Position numbers and translations under genes: made by a program. The notes beneath the pieces were generated by a model. That model was given only the letters and a program-made list of their open reading frames with translations, had not been told where the DNA came from and ran no database searches. Source: Calditrichales bacterium (lineage in GTDB: Bacteria > Calditrichota > Calditrichia > Calditrichales > J004). Taken from it: 64,000 nt of DNA. Shown here piece by piece: positions 40,614-53,155 of the stretch (position 1 is the stretch's first letter; every line of letters begins with the position of its first letter). Where the stretch lies: positions 1,600,001-1,664,000 of the forward strand of contig OZ254086.1 of NCBI GenBank assembly GCA_965267575.1, written 5' to 3'.

Positions 40614-41015
40614 TTAGCCTGCTTTGACAAGTTCTAAAAATTCTCTCGGCGTTATAATTTTGATCGGAGAATTAGCCCTCACGTCCAATAAATCCTTGTC
40701 ACCCGTAATAAGAACGGCTGCTTTACTTTTTATAGAAAGGGCGAGGATCTTCTCATCATCCTTGTCTCGAAGTGCCAAAGGCGATGGTTCATTTGCATAG
40801 GTACATACTTCAAAGTGGTTTAGATAATTGAGAATATTTTTAACCGAAGTATCCGGCATTTTAAACTTCTTGAGCAGAGCATTTTTGAGTTCGGCAAGGA
40901 CCACATCGCCAATGACAAGCTCGTGTTCCTTGACTATAATTCTAAAAATATCAGCAGACAAACCACGCGAGACAAAGGCGCTTATCAGCACATTTGTATC
41001 CAGGAAAATCCTCAA
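40614..41015 (-). CDS. PIN-domain toxin
   Basis: IFLDTNVLISA, LAEL, RDKDDEKILA and LITGDKDLL motifs. Confidence 0.88.
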   Translation of the reverse strand: MRIFLDTNVLISAFVSRGLSADIFRIIVKEHELVIGDVVLAELKNALLKKFKMPDTSVKNILNYLNHFEVCTYANEPSPLALRDKDDEKILALSIKSKAAVLITGDKDLLDVRANSPIKIITPREFLELVKAG

Positions 41016-41230
41016 GAGATTTCCCTAAATACATCTTCATCTGTAAGGATATTTTTGCTTTCGCCGTAGGGCAGAGATTGTTCACGCAGTACCTCATACA
41101 TCTGCAGAAGTAGCTGACGACGCAGTGATTCACGGACCACTTCACTGCGCTTGCGCCTCTGCTGTTTGGCGACGGCGTTTAACAAATCGTTTAGCTCGTC
41201 ATCAAGACGGATGGTGATAGCATTTTTCAT
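41012..41230 (-). CDS. Ribbon-helix-helix (CopG) antitoxin
   Basis: MKNAITIRLDDEL...RSEVVRESLRR; overlaps the PIN gene start; tandem TGTnnnACA boxes immediately upstream (41230-41248). Confidence 0.82.
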   Translation of the reverse strand: MKNAITIRLDDELNDLLNAVAKQQRRKRSEVVRESLRRQLLLQMYEVLREQSLPYGESKNILTDEDVFREIS

Positions 41231-41337
41231 GTCATACAATGTAATACATGGAGCTTGAGGCCGCAAGAAATTGAATTTGATCGGGCCATATGGGATCGCA
41301 TGCCTTTGCAGCTTTTGAAGGCGTAGATGCTTCTTAC

Positions 41338-41700
41338 TTACGCAAAGTCATCATCCGCCTTGTTGGGATCAACAGCCTGGTATTTTTTATGTAGACGATA
41401 TGAATATTTTGTAAGAACAAAAATTATGATAAAGGAAAATGTGATCGTAAAGAAATTGAATTCCATATTACCCTTATACATATCGTAAATTACCCGTCCG
41501 ATCATAATTAACATATAAGTGCCTATATTTCCGCTGTCTGCAATCTCCGCCTGTCGTGGGCTTTTGGGGCGTATATAGTCTTTATAGAAAAGGATGAATC
41601 CCACCTGTTCCAAGACAAAAGAAACAATAAAAAAAGCAATAACTATTATATGCGCTTTTCCGATTGAAATTAAGACGGAGATGAATGATTCTGTTAGCAT
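41338..41700 (-). CDS. Putative membrane immunity protein (family B, copy 1)
   Basis: 120 aa with 3 hydrophobic segments, directly downstream of toxin tip B1; near-identical to 47481-47855. Confidence 0.65.
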   Translation of the reverse strand: MLTESFISVLISIGKAHIIVIAFFIVSFVLEQVGFILFYKDYIRPKSPRQAEIADSGNIGTYMLIMIGRVIYDMYKGNMEFNFFTITFSFIIIFVLTKYSYRLHKKYQAVDPNKADDDFA

Positions 41701-41715
41701 TTACTTTACGTCTCT

Positions 41716-42127
41716 TTATGGGTTAACAGCGCGATCTATTGTATGTATCCTTTGCATAAAAATTCCCGGTACATAAAATGGTTTATAATAATTCCCTGCT
41801 GGACCACCGATTTCCCGGCTGGCTCCAATGCTAATGGCAGTTAACAATAAGTCATTAACGACCGGAGCGTTTTGTAAGTAGAAATTATAATAACGAAGCC
41901 CAACCTCTATTGCCTTGCCTGAAGCAGCAGCAATACCTTCACCCGCATAGCTCACGCCAAGCGCAGCCGCTCCACTGGATGCTGCAATGGCGCCAATATA
42001 CCGCCTGATGTAATGGCGGTTAAGCCCGCCGCCAGCGTCTTAAAAGCCGCCTGCCGGCGCTGGATGTCGGGATCGTCGGCTAACCATTGTTGGATGTCAT
42101 CCCAGTCGTATGGGCTTAGGCTGGCTT
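41716..42127 (-). pseudogene. Headless polymorphic toxin tip B1 (frameshifted)
   Basis: Shared linker LSPYDWDDIQQWLADDPDIQRRQAAFKTLAAG..AVSYAGEG followed by a unique tip. A 2-bp insertion relative to copy B2 (ttggCGccatt vs ttggccatt) breaks the frame. Confidence 0.65.
41935..42127. repeat. ~190 bp direct repeat (type-B linker), partner at 47252-47442
   Basis: Near-identical sequence read directly at both positions. Confidence 0.9.
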
Positions 42128-42130
42128 ACA

Positions 42131-42910
42131 TTATTTAATCTCAACCCTTATCTTCCACTTAGAGCTTGCCTCACTACTCGTTACCTTCAAAAAAAGCTTC
42201 GTCACACCTCTCAGGCGGGTTTCCGTTTTTATTCTGCCATTAGTAGTGGTCATTTCTGTGGTAAACAGTTCTTTTCCGCTCTTGTCCGTAACATTTAACT
42301 GATCGGCTTCTTTATAAAATTCATAGGTTAGTTTTAGCTTTGTTTCGTAACCAGATAGTAGAACTTCCTTTGTTAGGCTGCCTGTTCCAGCGAATTCTTC
42401 GTTAAGTTCACGGTAGAATGTTTTGGAGCTATCTTCAGGAATATAATCATCCTTGTTAAACGAATTACACACCTGTTTTCCCTGTTTATCAAAACATAAT
42501 TCCATCTCTTTGTTAGATAATTGCTTTAAGTGAAAACTTAGCTTGCTTGACTTTTCAAATAATCCACTAAAAGAACCGTCATAACTTTCTAAAACAGTTC
42601 TTTCACTTAAAATCAATTCTTTTCCAGAAGGGTCATAGTGCCAAGTTCCTTTTTCAGTCATTGAAGTATAGGCTCCATTTATTCTTATGTCATTGTCCTT
42701 TAGTTTCCCCGTTAACTCATAGGAACCAATATCAGCGGCAATTGGATTATAAACGAAATACTTGTGATCTGACCTAAAAATAATAATATCTTGATATTCA
42801 CAATAATTGCATATCAGGAACCAGCTTCCCAATAATTTTTCTTCTTGTGGCTCGGAGCACGCAGTATTGCTTAACAACAGAACAAGAAACGCTATTTTAA
42901 TTATTAACAT
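42131..42910 (-). CDS. Lipoprotein, putative immunity protein for the M23 toxin tip
   Basis: Lipobox LLSNTAC then EEKLLGSW (lipocalin-like start); start overlaps the toxin stop (TAATG). Confidence 0.7.
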   Translation of the reverse strand: MLIIKIAFLVLLLSNTACSEPQEEKLLGSWFLICNYCEYQDIIIFRSDHKYFVYNPIAADIGSYELTGKLKDNDIRINGAYTSMTEKGTWHYDPSGKELILSERTVLESYDGSFSGLFEKSSKLSFHLKQLSNKEMELCFDKQGKQVCNSFNKDDYIPEDSSKTFYRELNEEFAGTGSLTKEVLLSGYETKLKLTYEFYKEADQLNVTDKSGKELFTTEMTTTNGRIKTETRLRGVTKLFLKVTSSEASSKWKIRVEIK

Positions 42911-43741
42911 TATTTTAGTCCTGGAAAGTATGGTGTTGGGTTAACCCAAGTTCTGTTAAGTCTCATCTGCAAATGAATATGAGGCGTTACATGAGGGGGA
43001 TATCCTAAACCTTGTAAATTCACTGATTGTCCAACAATATCACCTGGACTTACTTTTCTCCATCCACCTTGTATTGGTCCTACATAAAGAAGTTCTAATT
43101 TATCAAATCCAATGTTTGGATCGCTAGGAATAATTACAATAGTTGGTATGTCAATAGTTCGTCCATCCTTAAGTTTCTTTGGAAAAGAAGAATTAATAGC
43201 TCTGCCGGAAACAGGTGAAACAATATCCTGCCCATCAACGCTTAGAAAGTCTATTCCGTAATGTAGCCTATTTCCTCTTGGTGCCCCATAATGCCCCTGA
43301 CCTCCATCATCATTTCTAATGCCAAGCCCGGTTGGGTTGGTTAGGGTATTTCCCGCTCCTTGTTCAGAAACCCAGTAATAATACTCTAATGCTGCTACTT
43401 TGCCATCAACAATGCCGCCAGGCACACGCACAAGTCTTCCAACCAGATTACCTGAAACGGTTGTTTCTTCAAATTCCACGCCTGTATTCGCTGAAACATC
43501 TAAATACATTGAGAATAAACGTTCATTCACAATATGCCCATTGAACATGAAAGTAGTTCCCCCATAAGCCGGATGTCGCCACATTTCTGCAGGGCCGGAT
43601 GAAAGTTGGTTCAGCATCGATTCAAAGTCAACATCTATAGGCGAACTGTCCGCCCGCCCGTCCGGGTCATAGAAGTTGGGGGCGTTGTTGCGGTTGAATT
43701 TGTAGGGGTTGGCCCATTGCCGCGCCGGGTCGGTGGTGTGT
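42910..43741 (-). pseudogene. Headless Rhs C-terminal cassette with M23 peptidase toxin domain
   Basis: HTTDP..YDPDGR core end; tip GHYGAPRGNRLHYGIDF (HxxxD) and PHIHLQ (HxH), ending VNPTPY. The listed GTG start (43803) lies in an unrelated remnant. Confidence 0.82.
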
Positions 43742-43899
43742 CCCTTTACATCTGGACTTACGCTTTGCTCCAGCAAACACGCCGCCGTTGCACCCACTCT
43801 CACAACTCCAACACCTAGAACAACAGCTTTAAACCCAGCCTGCCGGCGTTGAATGTGTTGGGTTCACTGGTATTATAAGCAAATTGATACTTACAAATT

Positions 43900-44262
43900 T
43901 TAAGACATCATTATGGAAATCGTCAATGGTATCAAATATATCAAGATAACTAAAGTCGAATTAACGATATTAACTTCCTTTTGATGCTTTTCTTGTATTT
44001 TAACTATGCGCCTTTTTGTGAAATACAAATATACCGCCGTCCACCATATTATTAAAAACGGTAAGAAAATCGCCTTATTTGTGGAGCTGTCTTTTGAAAA
44101 ACTAATAAATATTTGGAAATCTAAGTAATATGACAGCAATACATGCAAAAAGCCCACATGAATAAGCATCGCTAACATAACTAAACCAGCAGTAATGAAC
44201 CTAGGGGTTTCATTTCTTCTTGCAATCAAAGGGTATAAAATAGCAAATAAATAACTGTACAT
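43900..44262 (-). CDS. Putative membrane immunity protein (family A)
   Basis: MYSYLFAILY..RRNETPRF..FLPF..VYLYFT..IYLIPL; paralogous to three other array genes; follows tip A1. Confidence 0.72.
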   Translation of the reverse strand: MYSYLFAILYPLIARRNETPRFITAGLVMLAMLIHVGFLHVLLSYYLDFQIFISFSKDSSTNKAIFLPFLIIWWTAVYLYFTKRRIVKIQEKHQKEVNIVNSTLVILIYLIPLTISIMMS

Positions 44263-44304
44263 AATTTACTCCAAAAATCGTCGCCATATTTTTCTTGTTT
44301 ATCT

Positions 44305-45110
44305 TCAATCATCAAAAATGTGTTCCGTTATCGAACGACCCGACGCGAATTGAAAAGTGATATCAAATGCATAATAGGTTGCAGCAAGCGTCCAGCCAAG
44401 CGGCCCTGATGCTAATACGCCTGCGGCAATAAAGCCGCCTTGAATAAGTAAGTCTGCTGTATGGTGATTTTCCCAACCATTACTAAGGCCATCGTAAACC
44501 GTTAACCCAGAGCCAGTTATACCCAAAGCAGTCCCACTAGCTTTGACAAATTTCAAATAAGGCTGTGCGGCTTTAACGCTGCGGTTCAGTGCTGCAGCCA
44601 GGTGGATCGTTTCGCCTTTAACGCCGTTCACAACACTCATAAAGCCAATTATATTTGCTAAATCTTTTGCTAAATCAGTATCGCCTCTCCAATACCAGTA
44701 TGCTTCCCCTTTTAAATCCCATTCAGAACCAGCAGTGCGAGTGTACGCTGCGCCAACTCTTATCCAACGACCTCCGGGTTGTGGGTCTGGAGGCCCGCCA
44801 GTAATGATTATTTTATCTACTTGATTTCTCGATATGGCGCTTTCAAGCCATGGCAAAAAGAAAGTGGCATCTACCGCTTTGCCGTCTATTTCAAAGCCCG
44901 TACCCCCATAAGCCGGATGCCGCCACATTTCTGCAGGGCCGGATGAAAGTTGATTAAGCATAGATTCAAAGTCAACATCTATGGGTGAACTGTCCGCCCG
45001 CCCGTCCGGGTCATAGAAGTTGGGCGCGTTGTTGCGGTTAAATTTGTAGGGGTTGGCCCATTGCCGTGCCGGGTCGGTTGTGTGCCTCTCGTCAAAGCCG
45101 GGTCTTATTA
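44305..45110 (-). pseudogene. Headless Rhs C-terminal cassette, hydrophobic toxin tip A1
   Basis: Degenerate RxYDPALxRW upstream of 45086, then intact HTTDP..DPDGR, linker and tip ending SITEHIFDD. Confidence 0.8.
44570..45086. repeat. ~515 bp near-identical direct repeat, partner at 45817-46333; shorter third copy at 43560-43741
   Basis: Sequences match at a 1247 bp offset (for example ttgccgtgcc at 45061 and 46308). Confidence 0.92.
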
Positions 45111-45170
45111 CGGTCTTGGGGGGCAGGTCATGGACTTTCCCCGCTCAACATGGCGTGATGCGCATGATTT

Positions 45171-45554
45171 TTACAAGGTAAAGGATATAAAAACCGACAA
45201 TGGAATAAGATATATAAAAACAACAAATAATATATTTTTAAAACTATGAATTCTTTCACCCTGATAGCTATTTAGGGTTTTTTTTATACGTTTTGGACTA
45301 AAATAAAGGTAAACTCCAACCATAAAAAAAAGAATGATAGGCAATGTACTGTACTTAGCTGTAAGGTTTGCCTCGGACATAAAATCGTAAATACCAAAAT
45401 ATTTTAACATTGCTAAGATACAAAAAACATGCATCCAAATAGCAACGAATACTACAACGGATGTTCCGAGTCTTGGGGTTTCATGGTTCCGTTCTTTTAA
45501 TTTTGTATAAAAAAAACCAAACAAAAAACTATACATGACTTCATTGCCTTTCAT
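45171..45554 (-). CDS. Putative membrane immunity protein (family A)
   Basis: MYSFLFGFFY..RNHETPRL..KYSTLPI..YLYFSPKRIK..IHSFKN..IYLIPL; starts 1 nt after the tip A2 stop. Confidence 0.75.
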   Translation of the reverse strand: MKGNEVMYSFLFGFFYTKLKERNHETPRLGTSVVVFVAIWMHVFCILAMLKYFGIYDFMSEANLTAKYSTLPIILFFMVGVYLYFSPKRIKKTLNSYQGERIHSFKNILFVVFIYLIPLSVFISFTL

Positions 45555-46538
45555 TTAATCAAAGAGATGTTCGGTTATCGAACGCCCTGAGGCGTATTGA
45601 AAGGTCATATCGACAGCATAATAACTGGCTGCGAGAGTCCAGCCAATTGGACCAGTAGCCGCAAGCCCTAAACCAATAAAGCCCCCCTGCAAAACTAAAT
45701 CTGCTACATGATGGGCATCCCATCCATTTGAAAGTGCATCAGCAAAAGTTAGCGCAACACCAATTCCACCCAAAACAGTACCAGTACCCTTAACCAAATT
45801 AAGATAGGGTTTGGTGGCTTTCACGCTGCGGTTCAGTGCTGCGGCCAGGTGAATCGTTTCGCCTTTAACGCCGTTCACAACACTCATAAAGCCAATTATA
45901 TTTGCTAAATCTTTTGCTAAATCAGTATCGCCTCTCCAATACCAGTATGCTTCCCCTTTTAAATCCCATTCAGAACCAGCAGTGCGAGTGTACGCTGCGC
46001 CAACTCTTATCCAACGACCTCCGGGTTGTGGGTCTGGAGGCCCGCCAGTAATGATTATTTTATCTACTTGATTTCTCGATATGGCGCTTTCAAGCCATGG
46101 CAAAAAGAAAGTGGCATCTACCGCTTTGCCGTCTATTTCAAAGCCCGTACCCCCATAAGCCGGATGCCGCCACATTTCTGCAGGGCCGGATGAAAGTTGA
46201 TTAAGCATAGATTCAAAGTCAACATCTATGGGTGAACTGTCCGCCCGCCCGTCCGGGTCATAGAAGTTGGGCGCGTTGTTGCGGTTAAATTTGTAGGGGT
46301 TGGCCCATTGCCGTGCCGGGTCGGTTGTGTGCCAACGTGCCAGGGCCGGGTCGTAATCCCGCCAACCAAAATGGTATTTCGCCAAGCCGGCTTCGGTATC
46401 CAGCTCTTTGGTGCTGAATTTAAGCTGGGTGTTGGTATTACCGCTGTTATAGGAGAGCCCGCCCATCTGCAGGCCAAAGGGGTAATAATCATCCTTGCTG
46501 ACGATTATGCCGTTTTCGTTAACTATCTTCTTTAAGTG
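45555..46538 (-). pseudogene. Longest orphan Rhs cassette: Rhs-associated core remnant plus toxin tip A2
   Basis: Open frame KIVNENGIIVSKDDYYPFGLQM..KFSTKELDTEAGLAKYHFGWRDYDPALARWHTTDP..NPY..N...YDPDGR matches the Rhs core consensus; internal ATG at 46466. Confidence 0.88.
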
Positions 46539-46611
46539 CTATATTGCCTTTAACGCAGGAATAGCGATAGGACGTAAAACCAATAGGCAGGTTTTTCAGC
46601 TTCCCATTTTA

Positions 46612-46971
46612 TTAACCATTCAAGTTATCGAAATTATTTTTCGTTGGATCTATTGGCGTAAATTTTAGGTGGATCTTGCCAAATATAATTGCAAGCAATA
46701 AGACTAAAACGAACCAAACCAAAAATGAAAAGCCTTCAGGATCGTCGTGATACGCTCTCAGATCATTAAATAGAACAAGTAGGTTGACGAAAAAATAGAA
46801 TAAGGCCGCTAGAACCGCAGCGCCGTCAGCCATAAATTTATTTTTTGGCGCCTTAAGATTAGACCATAACAAATATAAAAACTTTATTCGATTTTCAATA
46901 AGAAAACTAAGCAGATACAATATTCCTACTACAATTGTACCTTCAACAATAATTGATATCGTGTATTGCAT
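46612..46971 (-). CDS. Putative membrane immunity protein for tip B2
   Basis: 119 aa with 3 hydrophobic segments; starts immediately after the tip B2 stop. Confidence 0.65.
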   Translation of the reverse strand: MQYTISIIVEGTIVVGILYLLSFLIENRIKFLYLLWSNLKAPKNKFMADGAAVLAALFYFFVNLLVLFNDLRAYHDDPEGFSFLVWFVLVLLLAIIFGKIHLKFTPIDPTKNNFDNLNG

Positions 46972-46972
46972 A

Positions 46973-47442
46973 TTACTTCGGTAAAATTTGTATTATCTGC
47001 CCCATAATGTAACCGCTAATTCCCGGCCACCCACCAGCGCTAGCATCTGAGCCATATGAACTTGCAACACCATGAACAAATTGTGAAATCCCTTGATAAT
47101 TCCTTGTTGCAATATATAATGCCTGAGCGGTAGCAGCATTAGCCATATATATTGACGAATTTATCATCATCACTGCTTCCGCCTGGGCGGTTGTGGCAGC
47201 AATATAAAACTGTTCTGACACATATGGTAGTGTCGATTTAACTGCGGCAAAACCTTCACCCGCATAGCTTACGGCAAGCGCAGCCGCTCCACTGGATGCT
47301 GCAATGGCCAATATACCGCCCGATGTAATGGCGGTTAATCCCGCCGCCAGCGTCTTAAAAGCCGCCTGCCGGCGCTGGATGTCGGGATCGTCGGCTAACC
47401 ATTGCTGGATGTCATCCCAGTCGTATGGGCTTAGGCTGGCTT
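46973..47442 (-). pseudogene. Headless polymorphic toxin tip B2
   Basis: In-frame type-B linker followed by a unique Ala/Gly-rich tip ending GYIMGQIIQILPK; no convincing start codon. Confidence 0.65.
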
Positions 47443-47480
47443 TGTTTCAGCAGCAATGACTACTGGGCGTTGCTTCTTGT

Positions 47481-47855
47481 CTACGTAAAATCGTCATCCG
47501 CTTTATTGGGATCAATGGACTGGTATTTTTTATGTAGACGATATGAATATTTTGTAAGAACAAAAATTATGATAAAGGAAAATGTGATCGTAAAGAAATT
47601 GAATTCCATATTACCCTTATACATATCGTAAATTACCCGTCCGATCATAATTAACATATAAGTGCCTATATTTCTGCTGTCTGCAATCTCCGCCTGTCGT
47701 GGGCTTTTGGGGCGTATATAGTCTTTATAGAAAAGGATGAATCCCACCTGTTCCAAGACAAAAGAAACAATAAAAAAAGCAATAACTATTATATGCGCTT
47801 TTCCGATTGAAATTAAGACGGAGATGAATGATTCTATTAAAATCGTGACCATCAT
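47481..47855 (-). CDS. Putative membrane immunity protein (family B, copy 2; orphan)
   Basis: Near-identical to 41338-41700 with a different N-terminus; no cognate tip upstream; overlaps the stop of the previous gene. Confidence 0.65.
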   Translation of the reverse strand: MMVTILIESFISVLISIGKAHIIVIAFFIVSFVLEQVGFILFYKDYIRPKSPRQAEIADSRNIGTYMLIMIGRVIYDMYKGNMEFNFFTITFSFIIIFVLTKYSYRLHKKYQSIDPNKADDDFT

Positions 47856-48226
47856 GATGACAAGTAAATAATAATGGATAAAGGCACTATGTAGATTAGA
47901 GCAACAAAAACACTGTTTTTAAAACTATGAATATTTTCTTCGCCGTATTTAGCCAAAATGCTTTTTATACGCTTTGGAGAAAAATACAAATATGCAAAAA
48001 GCCAAATAACAATAACAATTGGCAAAAAACTGTATTTGTTTGAAAATTGCCCGTCAGGAAAAACGTCCATAACTGAATAGCCAAAAAACTCCCTTATTAT
48101 TGCGTCCAACGATAAGACATGAAATAGCACCGCTAGGAATACTGATCCCGCAGCATTAAATCTCGGCCCGCCACTATTTCTTTTTTTAATTAAGTGATAA
48201 AAAAAGGCGAAAACTAAATTATACAT
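47852..48226 (-). CDS. Putative membrane immunity protein (family A)
   Basis: MYNLVFAFFY..KRNSGGPRF..NKYSFLPI..YLYFSPKRIK..IHSFKN; follows tip A3. Confidence 0.75.
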   Translation of the reverse strand: MYNLVFAFFYHLIKKRNSGGPRFNAAGSVFLAVLFHVLSLDAIIREFFGYSVMDVFPDGQFSNKYSFLPIVIVIWLFAYLYFSPKRIKSILAKYGEENIHSFKNSVFVALIYIVPLSIIIYLSS

Positions 48227-48240
48227 ATTCTTTTATCCTC

Positions 48241-48655
48241 TCAATCAAATATATGCTCTGTTATTGAACGACCTGATGCGTATTGAAAAGTAATGTCAAA
48301 AGCGTAATACGTAGCAGCCAGTGTCCATCCGATCGGATTAGACCCGGCCGCTATGCCAACAACTATAAAAGTTGTTTGTAGGGCTAAGTCAGCATAATGA
48401 TGATTTTCCAATCCGTTTGTATGCGCATCAAGAGCTGTTAAACCAAGCCCTGTAAATCCCAATGCCGTACCAGTACCTTTTACCAAATTAAGATAAGGTT
48501 TTGCCGCTTTCACGCTGCGGTTCAGTGCTGCGGCCAGGTGAATCGTTTCGCCCTTGACGCCGTTCACAACACCCATAAACCCAATTATATTTGCTAAATC
48601 AGAGGCCGTGTTGTCCGTATCATATTCGTTCCAAATCTGTATTGTCGAATGCAGT
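48241..48655 (-). pseudogene. Truncated toxin tip A3
   Basis: DLANIIGFMGVVNGVKGETIHLAAALNRSVKA..HHYAD..PIGWTLAATYYAFDITFQYASGRSITEHIFD; lacks the DPDG region. Confidence 0.78.
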
Positions 48656-48656
48656 T

Positions 48657-49048
48657 CTAGAATAAGATTGGTAAACAAATAAAAAACAACAAAATGCTAC
48701 CAATCAAATAAGCCAAAACTATAGCCGTACCTCTTTTTTTTTGTTTAATGTGTTCTCCTTTATACTTATCTATTAAACCATCCCATTTGTCTTTATTATA
48801 CAAAGCAAAATGCAGGGCAAACCATACTATTATTAGTATAATACTTACAATATCTCCCGAGGATAAAAAATCAGCTATATTTAGCTTAAATGGAGTAACA
48901 GCTTCAAGTAAGCTCAAGAACGTAAGCATTAAAAAAAATGTACTGTTGCCAAAGTAATGACGACGTTAAAAACTGGAGTATCACCTCTTTTTAAAGCCCA
49001 CGAATATAATTTATAAATTATGTAATCGTACTTAAAAAACATATTCAT
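48657..49048 (-). pseudogene. Immunity-like membrane gene frameshifted in a T8 tract
   Basis: MNMFFKYDYIIYKLYSWALKRGDTPVFNVVITLATVHFF hits TAA right after the T8 run (plus-strand A8 at 48931-48938); one extra T joins it to ORF 48657-48929. Confidence 0.7.
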
Positions 49049-49158
49049 AAACTACCTTTAGTCATTTGCTGCATCTACCCAATCGCCCCAAAATCCTTCC
49101 ATATCACCAACAATATCTAATTCTCATTTGTCAAAAAAATGTGCTCCGTACTGAGTGC

Positions 49159-49524
49159 CTAAAATTTAACCATTATGATAAATGGAATAATATATATCAA
49201 CGAAACAACAATAATATTTTTTAACGAAAGAATATTTATATTTTCATATTTCTTTAGTAATTGCGCAATCTTTTTGGGTGTATAATAAAGGTATACGCCA
49301 ACCCAAATTAGAATTACAATCGGAAGAAACGAATACTTGTTATTGAAATACTCTTTAGAGAAAACATCGGAGATGGAAAAGTCCCAAAAAGCGTTTACCA
49401 ATGAGTTCAAACATAGAATGTGCAGCAAAACCGCCAAGTGTAGCAGGCCAGAAGTTTCAAACCTCGGTCTTTCGTGTTTCTTCTCAATTAGGCGATAAAA
49501 GAAAGCAAATAAATATTGGTACAT
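49159..49524 (-). CDS. Putative membrane immunity protein (family A)
   Basis: MYQYLFAFFY..KKHERPRF..NKYSFLPI..VYLYYTPKKI..SLKN..IYIIP; follows tip remnant A4. Confidence 0.75.
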   Translation of the reverse strand: MYQYLFAFFYRLIEKKHERPRFETSGLLHLAVLLHILCLNSLVNAFWDFSISDVFSKEYFNNKYSFLPIVILIWVGVYLYYTPKKIAQLLKKYENINILSLKNIIVVSLIYIIPFIIMVKF

Positions 49525-49552
49525 GAATTTCCCTTAAAAACTAAGATTACAA

Positions 49553-49665
49553 TTAATCAAATATATGCTCTGTTATTGAACAATCTGATGCGTATTGAAA
49601 GGTGATATCAAACGCATAATAGGTTGCAGCAAGCGTCCAGCCAAGCGGCCACGATACTAATACGC
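49553..49665 (-). pseudogene. Toxin tip A4 remnant (last ~36 codons)
   Basis: Translates as VLVSWPLGWTLAATYYAFDITFQYASDCSITEHIFD*. Confidence 0.78.
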
Positions 49666-49722
49666 GCCCCGCTCAACAAATACGCAGTTCACGCCTCGGG
49701 GCGTGATTGGATTTTTCAACAT

Positions 49723-51934: not shown

Positions 51935-53068
51935 TTATCGATTTTTAATACGCTTTATATAAGCGTCCCATACACTCAAGAATGTTTCCAAATTTGATGG
52001 AGACAGTAGAGAATTCAGATTAAAAGAAGGTCTTCGATTTATCGAATCTTCGGGAAGTTTAATTCCCGGAATTTTATTTAATTTTCTTAACAAATCCAAA
52101 CGATTAGACTTCTCATTATAAATAGGTTTTTCCTTGATCCATTGAAAGGAAATTTCAACTGTCGCATTTGTCCATATTGAAAACATAAAATATTTACTAT
52201 CACTATAATCAAGCATAGGAACTAATGAGCCCAATTTCTGTCCTTTACCCCACCAAACTCTTAAGCCATTCTTTTCCGTCCAGCTTAGAATATTTTCTAC
52301 GAGGTCTGAAATATCTCTTCCAAAGTCTTGCCCTATTCGCTCTAAAAACGACTCCCGGGTCCACTGAGTCTTGGCGCTTTGTAAACGTGATTTTTTTTGC
52401 TTGACAATTGAGTTTTGCCCGACGACACGGGGAACAAGTGTCTTTCTGGATCCGGACGAAAACTGTTTTATTTCTACTCCCAATATCTCTGCCGGATTCA
52501 TTTGTTCATTTAAAAATTCAATAATTCCTCTCAATTCAGTGGGTATTTCATCAGCGACTATTAAAAGCCGGATTTGACCAATTTTTAAATTGTCTTCTAC
52601 TTTTTGCCAAAAAGCCGCGTAATCTTCTTCAATTTCTAAAACGCTGCGTAGCTTATCTTTTGCGTCCAAGCCGTTTTTTTGACAAAAGACTTCAAATGTA
52701 GCTTGTAGCTTTTCGGCGTTCCAATATGTTACAGCATTAGCTGCATACTCCAAGATTTGTCCGATCACTTCGCGCCTTATTCGCGTATCAGAACTACGTT
52801 TTACTTCTACCAACGTAGGTATACCGTCCTGATCAAGGAATAAGTGATCAACATACCAACGACTTATTCCTTCATCATTGTCGAATACGGATGCCTCTTT
52901 GGCGATTAAAACCCATCTTCTTGGATTTAAGTCATCTATTTGATCACCGGGAATCAGGTTTGGGTAGCTGACAAGTAATTTCTGTAGTATAAGTTCGGTA
53001 TCATAGGCCCTCTCATGCATTTCAACGAGACTGCCGTCTTGTTCGATAAGAAATATTCCGTTGCTCAA
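51935..53068 (-). CDS. PD-(D/E)xK nuclease-like protein (NucS/EndoMS-like N-domain)
   Basis: E..LQ.LL..YP, VDHLFLDQDGIPTLVEVKR and RREVIGQILEYAA motifs; AT-rich; TTG start with SD-like gggg (alternative ATG 53128). Confidence 0.65.
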   Translation of the reverse strand: MSNGIFLIEQDGSLVEMHERAYDTELILQKLLVSYPNLIPGDQIDDLNPRRWVLIAKEASVFDNDEGISRWYVDHLFLDQDGIPTLVEVKRSSDTRIRREVIGQILEYAANAVTYWNAEKLQATFEVFCQKNGLDAKDKLRSVLEIEEDYAAFWQKVEDNLKIGQIRLLIVADEIPTELRGIIEFLNEQMNPAEILGVEIKQFSSGSRKTLVPRVVGQNSIVKQKKSRLQSAKTQWTRESFLERIGQDFGRDISDLVENILSWTEKNGLRVWWGKGQKLGSLVPMLDYSDSKYFMFSIWTNATVEISFQWIKEKPIYNEKSNRLDLLRKLNKIPGIKLPEDSINRRPSFNLNSLLSPSNLETFLSVWDAYIKRIKNR

Positions 53069-53155
53069 ATGACCCCCATGAAAATATCTATCAAATTTAT
53101 ACACTAAACGGTATAAATTCGATAGCATTTTTGATGCGGGCCATTTTAAGTGAGG

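Follow-up and report, generated by a model that had tools for sequence, protein, structure and literature searches.

A repeated toxin–immunity cassette in a Calditrichales genome and its probable relation to Bfe1/Bfi1 of Bacteroides fragilis

A 64,000-nucleotide stretch of the genome of a Calditrichales bacterium (GenBank assembly GCA_965267575.1, contig OZ254086.1, positions 1,600,001 to 1,664,000; hereafter the window, whose numbering is used unless the prefix C1 or the genome is named) carries, between about 41.3 and 49.7 kb of the minus strand, a succession of short genes. These genes are the C-terminal ends, or tips, of toxin-like proteins, each with a gene 3' of it. Which toxins are these, how might they act, and can this bacterium use them? 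An earlier note on this DNA had taken four of the tips, and the small membrane proteins encoded after them, for a colicin-like toxin and immunity family under diversifying selection that might be undescribed. Our analysis indicates that the pair is a new divergent branch of the Rhs polymorphic toxin modules of the Bfe1/Bfi1 superfamily, and not an undescribed system. The best overall explanation, in which we have reasonable confidence, is that these are Bfe1/Bfi1-related orphan Rhs cassettes, encoding a membrane-inserting toxin that is blocked in the membrane by its immunity protein and that probably cannot be delivered in this genome.

Orphan Rhs tips, each followed by an immunity gene

The repeated tips and the immunity genes that accompany them are listed here from high to low coordinates.

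49553..49672, minus strand: remnant D, what is left of a fourth tip (A4 of the earlier note), namely its last 39 codons, at the upstream edge of the island; tip profile E 3.8e-15, stop codon just upstream
49159..49524, minus strand: immunity D; family profile E 8.4e-38
48657..49051, minus strand: fifth immunity-like gene, divergent and frameshifted, in overlapping frames 49051..48929 and 48965..48657; hhalign against the family, probability 76%, E 2.4e-5; six-frame search E 3.9e-4
48241..48696, minus strand: tip C, 151 residues, truncated at the N-terminus, toxin domain complete; alignments and Bfe1 model match
47852..48226, minus strand: immunity C; alignment and Bfi1 model match
45555..46538, minus strand: tip A, 327 residues from stop to stop, an orphan Rhs C-terminal module; TIGR03696 and Bfe1 model matches
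45815..45852, no strand: mosaic (recombination) junction of tips A and B, at the codons for ..NRSVKA; break in DNA identity
45171..45554, minus strand: immunity A, a membrane protein with three transmembrane segments; family-conserved start MY.. at 45536; Bfi1 model match
44305..45144, minus strand: tip B, 279 residues, an orphan module; alignments, DNA identity with tip A and Bfe1 model match
43900..44262, minus strand: immunity B; alignment, Bfi1 model match and three hydrophobic segments

Residues 18-97 of tip A match the Rhs core family Rhs_assc_core (TIGR03696; E 3.2e-14, 53.2 bits, above the 32.5-bit cut-off), and in a PDB sequence search tip A matches the TcC, YenC2 and RHS2 cores. Tip A starts with the last part of an Rhs core (..YDPALARW..DPDGR), continues through about 135 pre-toxin residues, and closes with a hydrophobic toxin domain in its last 85-120 residues. 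Tip B keeps only the last residues of the core (HTTDPARQ..DPDGR), followed by the same pre-toxin region and a divergent hydrophobic toxin domain. The toxin-tip open reading frames (ORFs) encode 151-327 residues, none in the array exceeding 327, and no full-length YD-repeat shell is found in the same gene. Thus the array is made up of orphaned C-terminal modules of Rhs (YD-repeat) toxins, each with an immunity gene after it; the earlier note had not recognised their Rhs nature. A match of BLF1 to the Cys-free pre-toxin linker in the PDB search (E 0.01) was taken as chance.

Alignment of the window tips confirms that HHxAD, P(L/I)GW and SITEH(I/L)FD are invariant while the surrounding sequence diverges, and that the fourth tip retains only its last part (49672..49553). 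A profile of three tips matches only four places in the 4.73-Mb single-contig genome, at E 1e-76 to 4e-15, hence the repetition of the tips is far beyond chance. Each tip is followed, after a gap of 0-42 nucleotides (nt) from its stop codon, by a distinct paralogous immunity gene of 120-127 codons, as the earlier note had described. The four window immunity proteins share 37-50% pairwise identity and have three hydrophobic segments each. Their family profile matches only five places in the genome, all of which lie in the window; the fifth is the frameshifted gene, which the earlier note had not described.

A full-length rhs gene with a matching core was not found in the genome. There are nine Rhs-core matches, one of which falls in a 2522-residue SpvB/Rhs protein near 96 kb (C1:94957-102525). 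This is the only long Rhs protein of the genome, located 1.5 Mb from the array, and the end of its core is unrelated. The pre-toxin region of the window tips has no other copy in the genome, and the DNA similarity of the tips to its other rhs loci extends over only 56-71 nt at 82-86% identity. TssC (PF05943), the sheath subunit of a type VI secretion system (T6SS), had no match in this 98%-complete genome; as it was the sole T6SS marker searched, this result does not establish that a T6SS is lacking. Because neither a matching full-length Rhs protein nor TssC was found, delivery of the tips is probably not possible in this genome. The island most likely represents a stock of immunity genes and a recombination reserve.

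The tips could still be weapons here, if they were expressed and delivered by an unrecognised route or if they were moved regularly into a full-length rhs gene. In favour of this, both tip A and tip B have an ATG start and an unbroken ORF, and the 2522-residue protein and other rhs arrays are present in the genome. The roughly 480 nt that are 100% identical between these two tips signify recent recombination, so the array may not be inert, which counts against a purely passive stock. However, the pre-toxin region and core end are unique to these tips in the genome, the homology to other rhs cores is as short as given above, tip C and remnant D are truncated, and TssC gave no match. We therefore consider continued use as weapons to be unlikely. 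A second orphan array is found at C1:247-257 kb, and consists of short signal-peptide proteins that end in an Rhs core and diverse tips.

Comparison of the tip genes at the DNA level reveals a mosaic. Tips A and B are 100% identical over 45853-46333, beyond which identity falls to 62-78% per 50-nt window. Over 45811-46333 there are 6 mismatches in 523 nt, all at or below 45852. The claim that the tips are nearly identical up to RSVKA therefore holds for A and B, while in tip C the part shared with them is confined to the 134 nt that precede the junction (92.5% identity). This abrupt drop at RSVKA marks a recombination junction. Behind it, synonymous divergence (dS) is saturated, at 1.5-2.9, and the ratio of nonsynonymous to synonymous divergence (dN/dS) is 0.07-0.17, estimated from three sequences, with site-specific positive selection beyond the reach of the test. 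The tips behind the junction are old alleles under purifying selection, and the diversifying selection that had been suggested is not supported.

In a tree of 159 tip domains, from which the window's own database copies, the three false matches described below and all rows under 80-85 residues were left out, an exclusive clade unites the three window tips, with 100/100 support and a long stem. Similarly, the four window immunity proteins form one clade in a 57-row tree (Shimodaira–Hasegawa-like approximate likelihood ratio test, SH-aLRT, 94), with the nearest outsider coming from a metagenome-assembled genome (MAG) of Calditrichia. Since toxins and immunity proteins each form an exclusive clade, the cassettes radiated together within one lineage. 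The immunity proteins, at 35-43% identity, diverged faster than the tips, at 68-73%. The differences between tips sit in the first and second helices of the toxin domain, and the part after P.GW is almost invariant.

The toxin and immunity families and their link to Bfe1/Bfi1

The toxin domain has a consensus of about 85 residues, which runs from a hydrophobic helix through D..NGW.NHH.AD to a second hydrophobic helix, then P.GW, a third hydrophobic helix with ..D.., and [ST]G[KR]SITE.[LI]FD at the end of the protein. We searched 1.84 billion representative sequences with the tip profile (HMMER), which gave 127 matches at E <= 1e-3 and 32 at E <= 1e-10. Three of the 127 (P0004, P0051 and P0118) were false matches of multiple low-complexity stretches and were dropped. 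In all of the remaining 124 cluster representatives the match lies at the extreme C-terminus. An Rhs core (Rhs_assc_core) was found in 36 of the 124, and the N-terminal parts of long members contain RHS_repeat, DUF6443, or SpvB with FG-GAP. Full-length Rhs proteins that carry this tip include P0016 (2198 residues; SpvB, FG-GAP and RHS_repeat), P0029 and P0050 (both with DUF6443), and the source records title some of the matches 'RHS repeat-associated'. No Pfam model covers the C-terminal end in the 50 longest family matches.

Species genomes were scanned for loci with 12 closer sequences, using the patterns W[QK][NP]HHTAD or TG[KR]SITEN[LI], a procedure biased to typical members. The scan confirmed 42 loci, 39 of which carry Bacteroidota record titles (chiefly Chitinophagaceae, Flavobacteriales, Cytophagales and Bacteroidales), while three are in MAGs labelled Saccharibacteria, Akkermansia and Calditrichia. 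Thus, the tip family is widespread on Bacteroidota Rhs proteins.

Conservation of the domain over the 124 members, in tip B numbering, is as follows.

T143, 85%; D146, 91%
H155, 94%; H156, 90%; A158, 95%; D159, 97%
P176, 97%; G178, 94%; W179, 79%
D189, 81%
G197, 88%; S199, 85%; T201, 93%; E202, 78%; D206, 89%

A small divergent subgroup lacks the HH pair (G011, with ASNILD; P0115, P0127 and P0128). Among 40 relatives of this bacterium, the tip and immunity families were found in one (G011), at one locus. This locus (L057, G011:C1:4837524-4840775; from another family) holds two orphan Rhs tips, one with a divergent toxin domain that lacks the HH pair, followed by a 113-residue membrane protein of the MY.. 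type.

The pairing of tips with small membrane immunity proteins, proposed for the window, is borne out elsewhere. An ORF of 70 codons or more starts between -40 and +250 nt from the toxin stop in 40 of the 42 loci. A hidden Markov model (HMM) derived only from the four immunity proteins of the window detects 38 of these ORFs (E <= 1e-3, best 4.4e-27), missing those of L048 and L055. Conserved residues of the immunity family are H36, P66, N101 and P112-L113. Pfam holds no model for this family, and a scan of 38 members returned only scattered membrane noise. Toxin and immunity identity matrices for 35 pairs are correlated (Mantel r 0.64, reached by 0 of 2000 permutations), which shows co-inheritance and is no proof of specificity, because linked genes share their history. 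In a word-index search, immunity A alone retrieved only itself, while the family alignment retrieved 21 unnamed or generically named proteins, none of which bears the name Bfi1.

The only family that recurred in our NCBIfam scans was the model pair for Bfe1 (NF053698) and Bfi1 (NF053699), a toxin and its immunity protein from the GA3 T6SS of B. fragilis 638R. Tips C, B and A match NF053698 at E 2.3e-5, 0.0035 and 0.016, respectively, always on profile positions 224-307 of 313; in tip C, residues 63-148 align to positions 225-306. Among the 124 family members, 21 match this model at E <= 1e-3 (best 6e-7), and all of those inspected do so on positions 212-307. Positions 1-211, corresponding to the N-terminal Hcp-loading and soluble parts, were matched neither by the tips nor by the inspected relatives. 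The immunity proteins match NF053699 colinearly over positions 3-118 of 131 (A, 1e-6; C, 1.6e-4; B, 5.9e-4). At other loci, 24 of the 40 ORFs that follow the toxin match this model as well (E <= 0.01, best 4.6e-8). Bfe1 itself is described as soluble in residues 1-242, with the rest predicted to be transmembrane (PMC13035841).

Four points weigh against this link. The tips score 14.7, 16.9 and 24.0 bits against a curated cut-off of 315 for NF053698, and the three immunity proteins 19.8-28.7 bits against a cut-off of 100 for NF053699. Immunity D has no Bfi1 match at E <= 0.1. Hydrophobic proteins can yield matches that are driven by composition. Finally, Bfe1 and Bfi1 entered the comparison as NCBIfam models, and in one direction. 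Composition alone would be hard put to explain the link, because two independent families each match the proper member of one tested pair. On these sequence comparisons, the toxin and immunity families are very probably homologous to the C-terminus of Bfe1 and to Bfi1. The window proteins are not Bfe1/Bfi1 equivalogs, since all scores lie far under the curated cut-offs. The repeated sub-threshold matches, together with the spread of the tip family, set aside the suggestion that the pair is undescribed. In the portions available to us of the literature on Bfe1 homologs and Rhs proteins, we found no published link between Bfe1 and an Rhs-borne domain.

Predicted structure and possible mode of action

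We used AlphaFold2 (AF2) to model the last 125 residues of tip A from 36 sequences. The model has a mean predicted local distance difference test score (pLDDT) of 71.6 and a predicted template modelling score (pTM) of 0.55, with ten-residue blocks over residues 51-125 scoring 79-92, and contains helices at 41-69, 73-91, 96-115 and 119-124. Hydropathy averaged over the family gives, in order, a 15-residue block of moderate strength, the polar turn NGW.NHH.AD, a strong block of 30 residues interrupted by P.GW, and a tail that is polar. Foldseek comparison with known folds in the PDB gave 0 matches at E <= 0.001 for the tip, and likewise for the immunity protein. In the VIA wide comparison, of 48,161 chains, the best matches were designed antiparallel three-helix bundles (Z 7.1, root-mean-square deviation of 2.5 Å over 74 residues), and none reached Z >= 8. 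The best Z lies under what helical bundles reach by chance, and no known fold can be named. Atlas neighbour clusters, which are weak leads, include a colicin-bearing cluster (0.91) and a glycine-zipper cluster (0.89); the Atlas model of the relative P0005 is poor (pTM 0.32).

The order of helices in the tip model, together with the matches to antiparallel three-helix bundles, suggests an up-down-up bundle in which the conserved acidic residues and histidines, those in the first turn as well as those in the tail, would lie at one end, and P.GW at the other. The AF2 model of immunity A is of higher confidence (pLDDT 91.1, pTM 0.82), with helices at 2-15, 21-46, 60-78, 81-90 and 99-120. The charges of the immunity loops fit the positive-inside rule for a protein that crosses the membrane three times, starting inside and ending outside.

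We propose that the toxin domain, once freed from an Rhs shell, would form a three-helix hydrophobic bundle and enter the cytoplasmic membrane of the target from the periplasmic side. Killing would result from a breach of the membrane barrier or of the proton-motive force, probably through an oligomeric pore or ionophore. The immunity protein, in the topology given above, would bind its own toxin inside the membrane, at the variable helices one and two, and so block it. Action at the membrane from the periplasmic side is suggested because periplasm-directed Bfe1 is reported to kill Bacteroides (PMC6692515), because the immunity proteins are membrane proteins, and because a sister cassette with the same linker encodes an M23-like peptidase of the cell-wall type.

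Several observations tell against a simple pore. Pore formation is proposed by analogy only, as the accessible parts of the literature on Bfe1 contained no experiment on how it kills and no biochemical killing mechanism. The fold searches yielded only generic matches to helical bundles. Residues D146, H155, H156, D159, D189, T201, E202 and D206 (tip B numbering) are 78-97% conserved, and look more like a binding or catalytic site than like a plain pore lining. In addition, the Bacteroides effector BteO, which has a transmembrane helix, is described as acting by binding OmpA and not as a pore (PMC12541434).

The main rival explanation is that the domain is a membrane-embedded binder or enzyme, whose polar cluster (D, N, W, HH and D of the first turn, with D and S.TE..FD of the tail) binds a metal, a lipid-phosphate carrier such as undecaprenyl phosphate or lipid II, or an essential envelope protein, with death following from block of the target. 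The polar residues are conserved while the helices between them vary, and in the model they would fall at the same end of the bundle. BteO provides a precedent for non-enzymatic target-binding effectors in Bacteroides, and the account of Bfe1 counterselection in PMC6692515 reports no spontaneous resistant mutants. On the other side, no enzyme family is matched, the HH pair is missing from the divergent subgroup, the domain is very small, and a membrane immunity protein fits either reading. We regard a binder or enzyme as improbable, and the membrane-inserting toxin remains our preferred reading. A bolder and somewhat more doubtful idea is that the Bfe1-like superfamily as a whole forms no passive pore, and instead has a tiny binding or catalytic site at the membrane face that captures a metal or the lipid-phosphate carrier of cell-wall synthesis. 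If true, this would explain the lack of Bfe1 escapers and constitute a new mode of action for a phylum-wide toxin class.

Membership of the true colicin pore-forming family (PF01024), as distinct from a general resemblance, is very improbable. Hydrophobic helices are indeed paired with a membrane immunity protein, and the colicin-bearing language-model neighbour cluster includes PF01024 (score 0.91, 142 common features), a lead that was rated weak. However, PF01024 was matched neither by the tips at E <= 0.1 nor by 50 family members at E <= 0.001, and no colicin appeared among the PDB sequence matches at E <= 10 or among the fold matches listed. Colicin pore domains are ten-helix bundles of about 200 residues, compared with three or four helices in about 85-120 residues here. 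Family membership, as the term colicin-like had implied, is thus not supported.

The NHH motif also recalls the xHH polymorphic-toxin group (Tox-AHH, -GHH, -SHH and similar). That it marks an HNH/EndoVII-type nuclease of this group, acting in the cytoplasm, is the least credible reading despite the H-H pair being conserved in 90-94% of members, given that neither the tips nor 50 relatives match any Pfam nuclease family (nor, in keeping with the earlier note, a deaminase), that the model is all-helical, lacks a beta-hairpin and has the motif flanked by two hydrophobic helices, that the immunity proteins are polytopic membrane proteins, and that Bfe1 kills from the periplasm (PMC6692515).

The island and its relation to known systems

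The remaining features of the array and of its downstream edge are as follows.

47481..47855, minus strand: small membrane gene, a near-copy of 41338-41700; 96% identity over 300 nt
46973..47446, minus strand: Ala/Gly-rich hydrophobic tip of another type, copy 1; 5' part 94-98% identical to 41927-42127, no family match
46612..46971, minus strand: small protein with three transmembrane segments after Ala/Gly-rich tip 1, a putative immunity protein by its position alone
42910..43863, minus strand: M23/LytM-like peptidase tip (HYGID .. HIHLQ); partial Peptidase_M23 match, E 0.0011, under the cut-off; LECT2 (M23 fold), E 0.002
42131..42910, minus strand: probable lipoprotein immunity of the M23-like tip, 259 residues, overlapping the tip's stop codon; signal-peptide-like N-terminus with Cys, role from position alone
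42039..41716 and 41700..41338, minus strand: Ala/Gly-rich tip copy 2 and membrane protein, the downstream end of the array; similarity to the copy 1 region
40614..41266, minus strand: PIN toxin and ribbon-helix-helix antitoxin (VapBC-like), the other island edge; PIN_3 E 1.2e-13, RHH_1 E 3.1e-5

GC content is 0.37-0.43 over 41-50 kb, compared with 0.47-0.56 in the flanks. In the relative G003, of the same family and another genus, 36 bp separate the M23 peptidase gene from the PBP1A gene, with no PIN/RHH segment between them, and the subsequent gene order is that of the window. Because M23 and PBP1A adjoin in G003, the segment of about 40.6-49.7 kb is extra in this genome. It is an inserted island of low GC content, about 9 kb long, with the PBP1A gene on one side and the M23 peptidase gene on the other. 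No tRNA gene was found in 36-54 kb, no terminal inverted repeats at the island, and no Rfam match in 40-51 kb. At the upstream edge (49667-49700) there is a hairpin-bearing stretch of 29-35 nt, which recurs in the genome at 1997081-1997109 (100%) and at 251002-251036 (91%), the latter copy falling within the other rhs orphan array. This stretch may be a repeat element or a recombination site. Just past the conserved M23 and beta-barrel genes, a 397-residue ORF (51935..53128, minus strand) has a GC content of 0.38 and no Pfam match.

The array also contains cassettes of other types. The M23-like tip keeps only the last core residues, to DPDG, and has the same first 60 or so pre-toxin residues as the array, with 182 nt in common with tips A and B at 94.5% identity. 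Its lipoprotein-like neighbour had no family match in the Pfam and NCBIfam scans. The domain matches suggest that this cassette probably encodes a cell-wall-degrading Rhs toxin and a periplasmic immunity protein. The two Ala/Gly-rich tips (46973-47446 and 41716-42039) are 94-98% identical in their 5' parts and then wholly divergent, and each has a different small membrane gene 3' of it. Copy 1 matches no Pfam or NCBIfam family. The two represent another putative type of membrane toxin in this array, which has no name and is unrelated to the first. A 300-nt stretch with a small membrane gene occurs twice, at 47471-47770 and 41328-41627, the copies being 96% identical and 6.1 kb apart; the gene looks like a displaced orphan immunity gene that was left after cassette replacement.

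The new elements here are the superfamily link, the list of conserved motifs, the lack of a Pfam model, and an orphan island for which no launcher was found. The transmembrane end of Bfe1, a standard counterselection toxin in Bacteroides genetics (PMC6692515), is placed in a family of at least 124 sequence clusters. This family supplies conserved residues for mutation and many natural toxin–immunity pairs for work on specificity. Neither family has a Pfam model, so both are at present unannotated in Bacteroidota Rhs loci. The island illustrates how a genome with no detectable launcher can keep a stock of immunity genes against the toxins of its neighbours.

Comparison with known systems places the cassettes among several relatives and analogues. 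As in orphan rhs and cdiA-CT displacement arrays, truncated toxin 3' ends are stacked, each with an immunity gene, and sharp junctions mark where the conserved upstream part meets a divergent tip. Unlike in those arrays, a parental full-length rhs gene was not found, and the array forms an island between two housekeeping genes. The colicin pore-forming domain resembles the present one in being helical, hydrophobic and opposed by a small immunity protein of the inner membrane, and insertion of a hydrophobic helical hairpin is plausible as a common principle; the domain here is much smaller, and has no sequence or listed fold match to colicins.

Tse5 (RhsP1) of Pseudomonas aeruginosa is an Rhs protein whose 149-residue C-terminal fragment is reported to be a membrane-inserting, depolarising pore former, with Tsi5 as an inner-membrane immunity protein with two predicted transmembrane segments (PMC9637101; PMC10684867). 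Both systems combine a short Rhs-borne C-terminal toxin with a membrane immunity protein, and the C-terminal fragment of Tse5 is the closest working model for how the present family may act. The two differ in that Tse5 is delivered by the T6SS through VgrG, in that Tsi5 has two predicted transmembrane segments compared with three in the window immunity proteins, and in that no Tse5 chain appeared in the tip-profile PDB search at E <= 10, although the deposited chain may not include the toxin part.

Bfe1/Bfi1 differs in its carrier and its range. The domain here ends an Rhs protein and is not an Hcp-carried cargo, TssC has no match in this genome, and the present family is spread over Bacteroidota, whereas bfi1 itself is reported from tBLASTn searches only in 35 B. 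fragilis strains (PMC6692515). What the two share is the C-terminal 85-95 residues of the toxin, which match the predicted transmembrane C-terminus of Bfe1, an immunity protein that matches the Bfi1 model over its whole length, and the order of the genes, with the toxin followed by a small membrane immunity gene in both.

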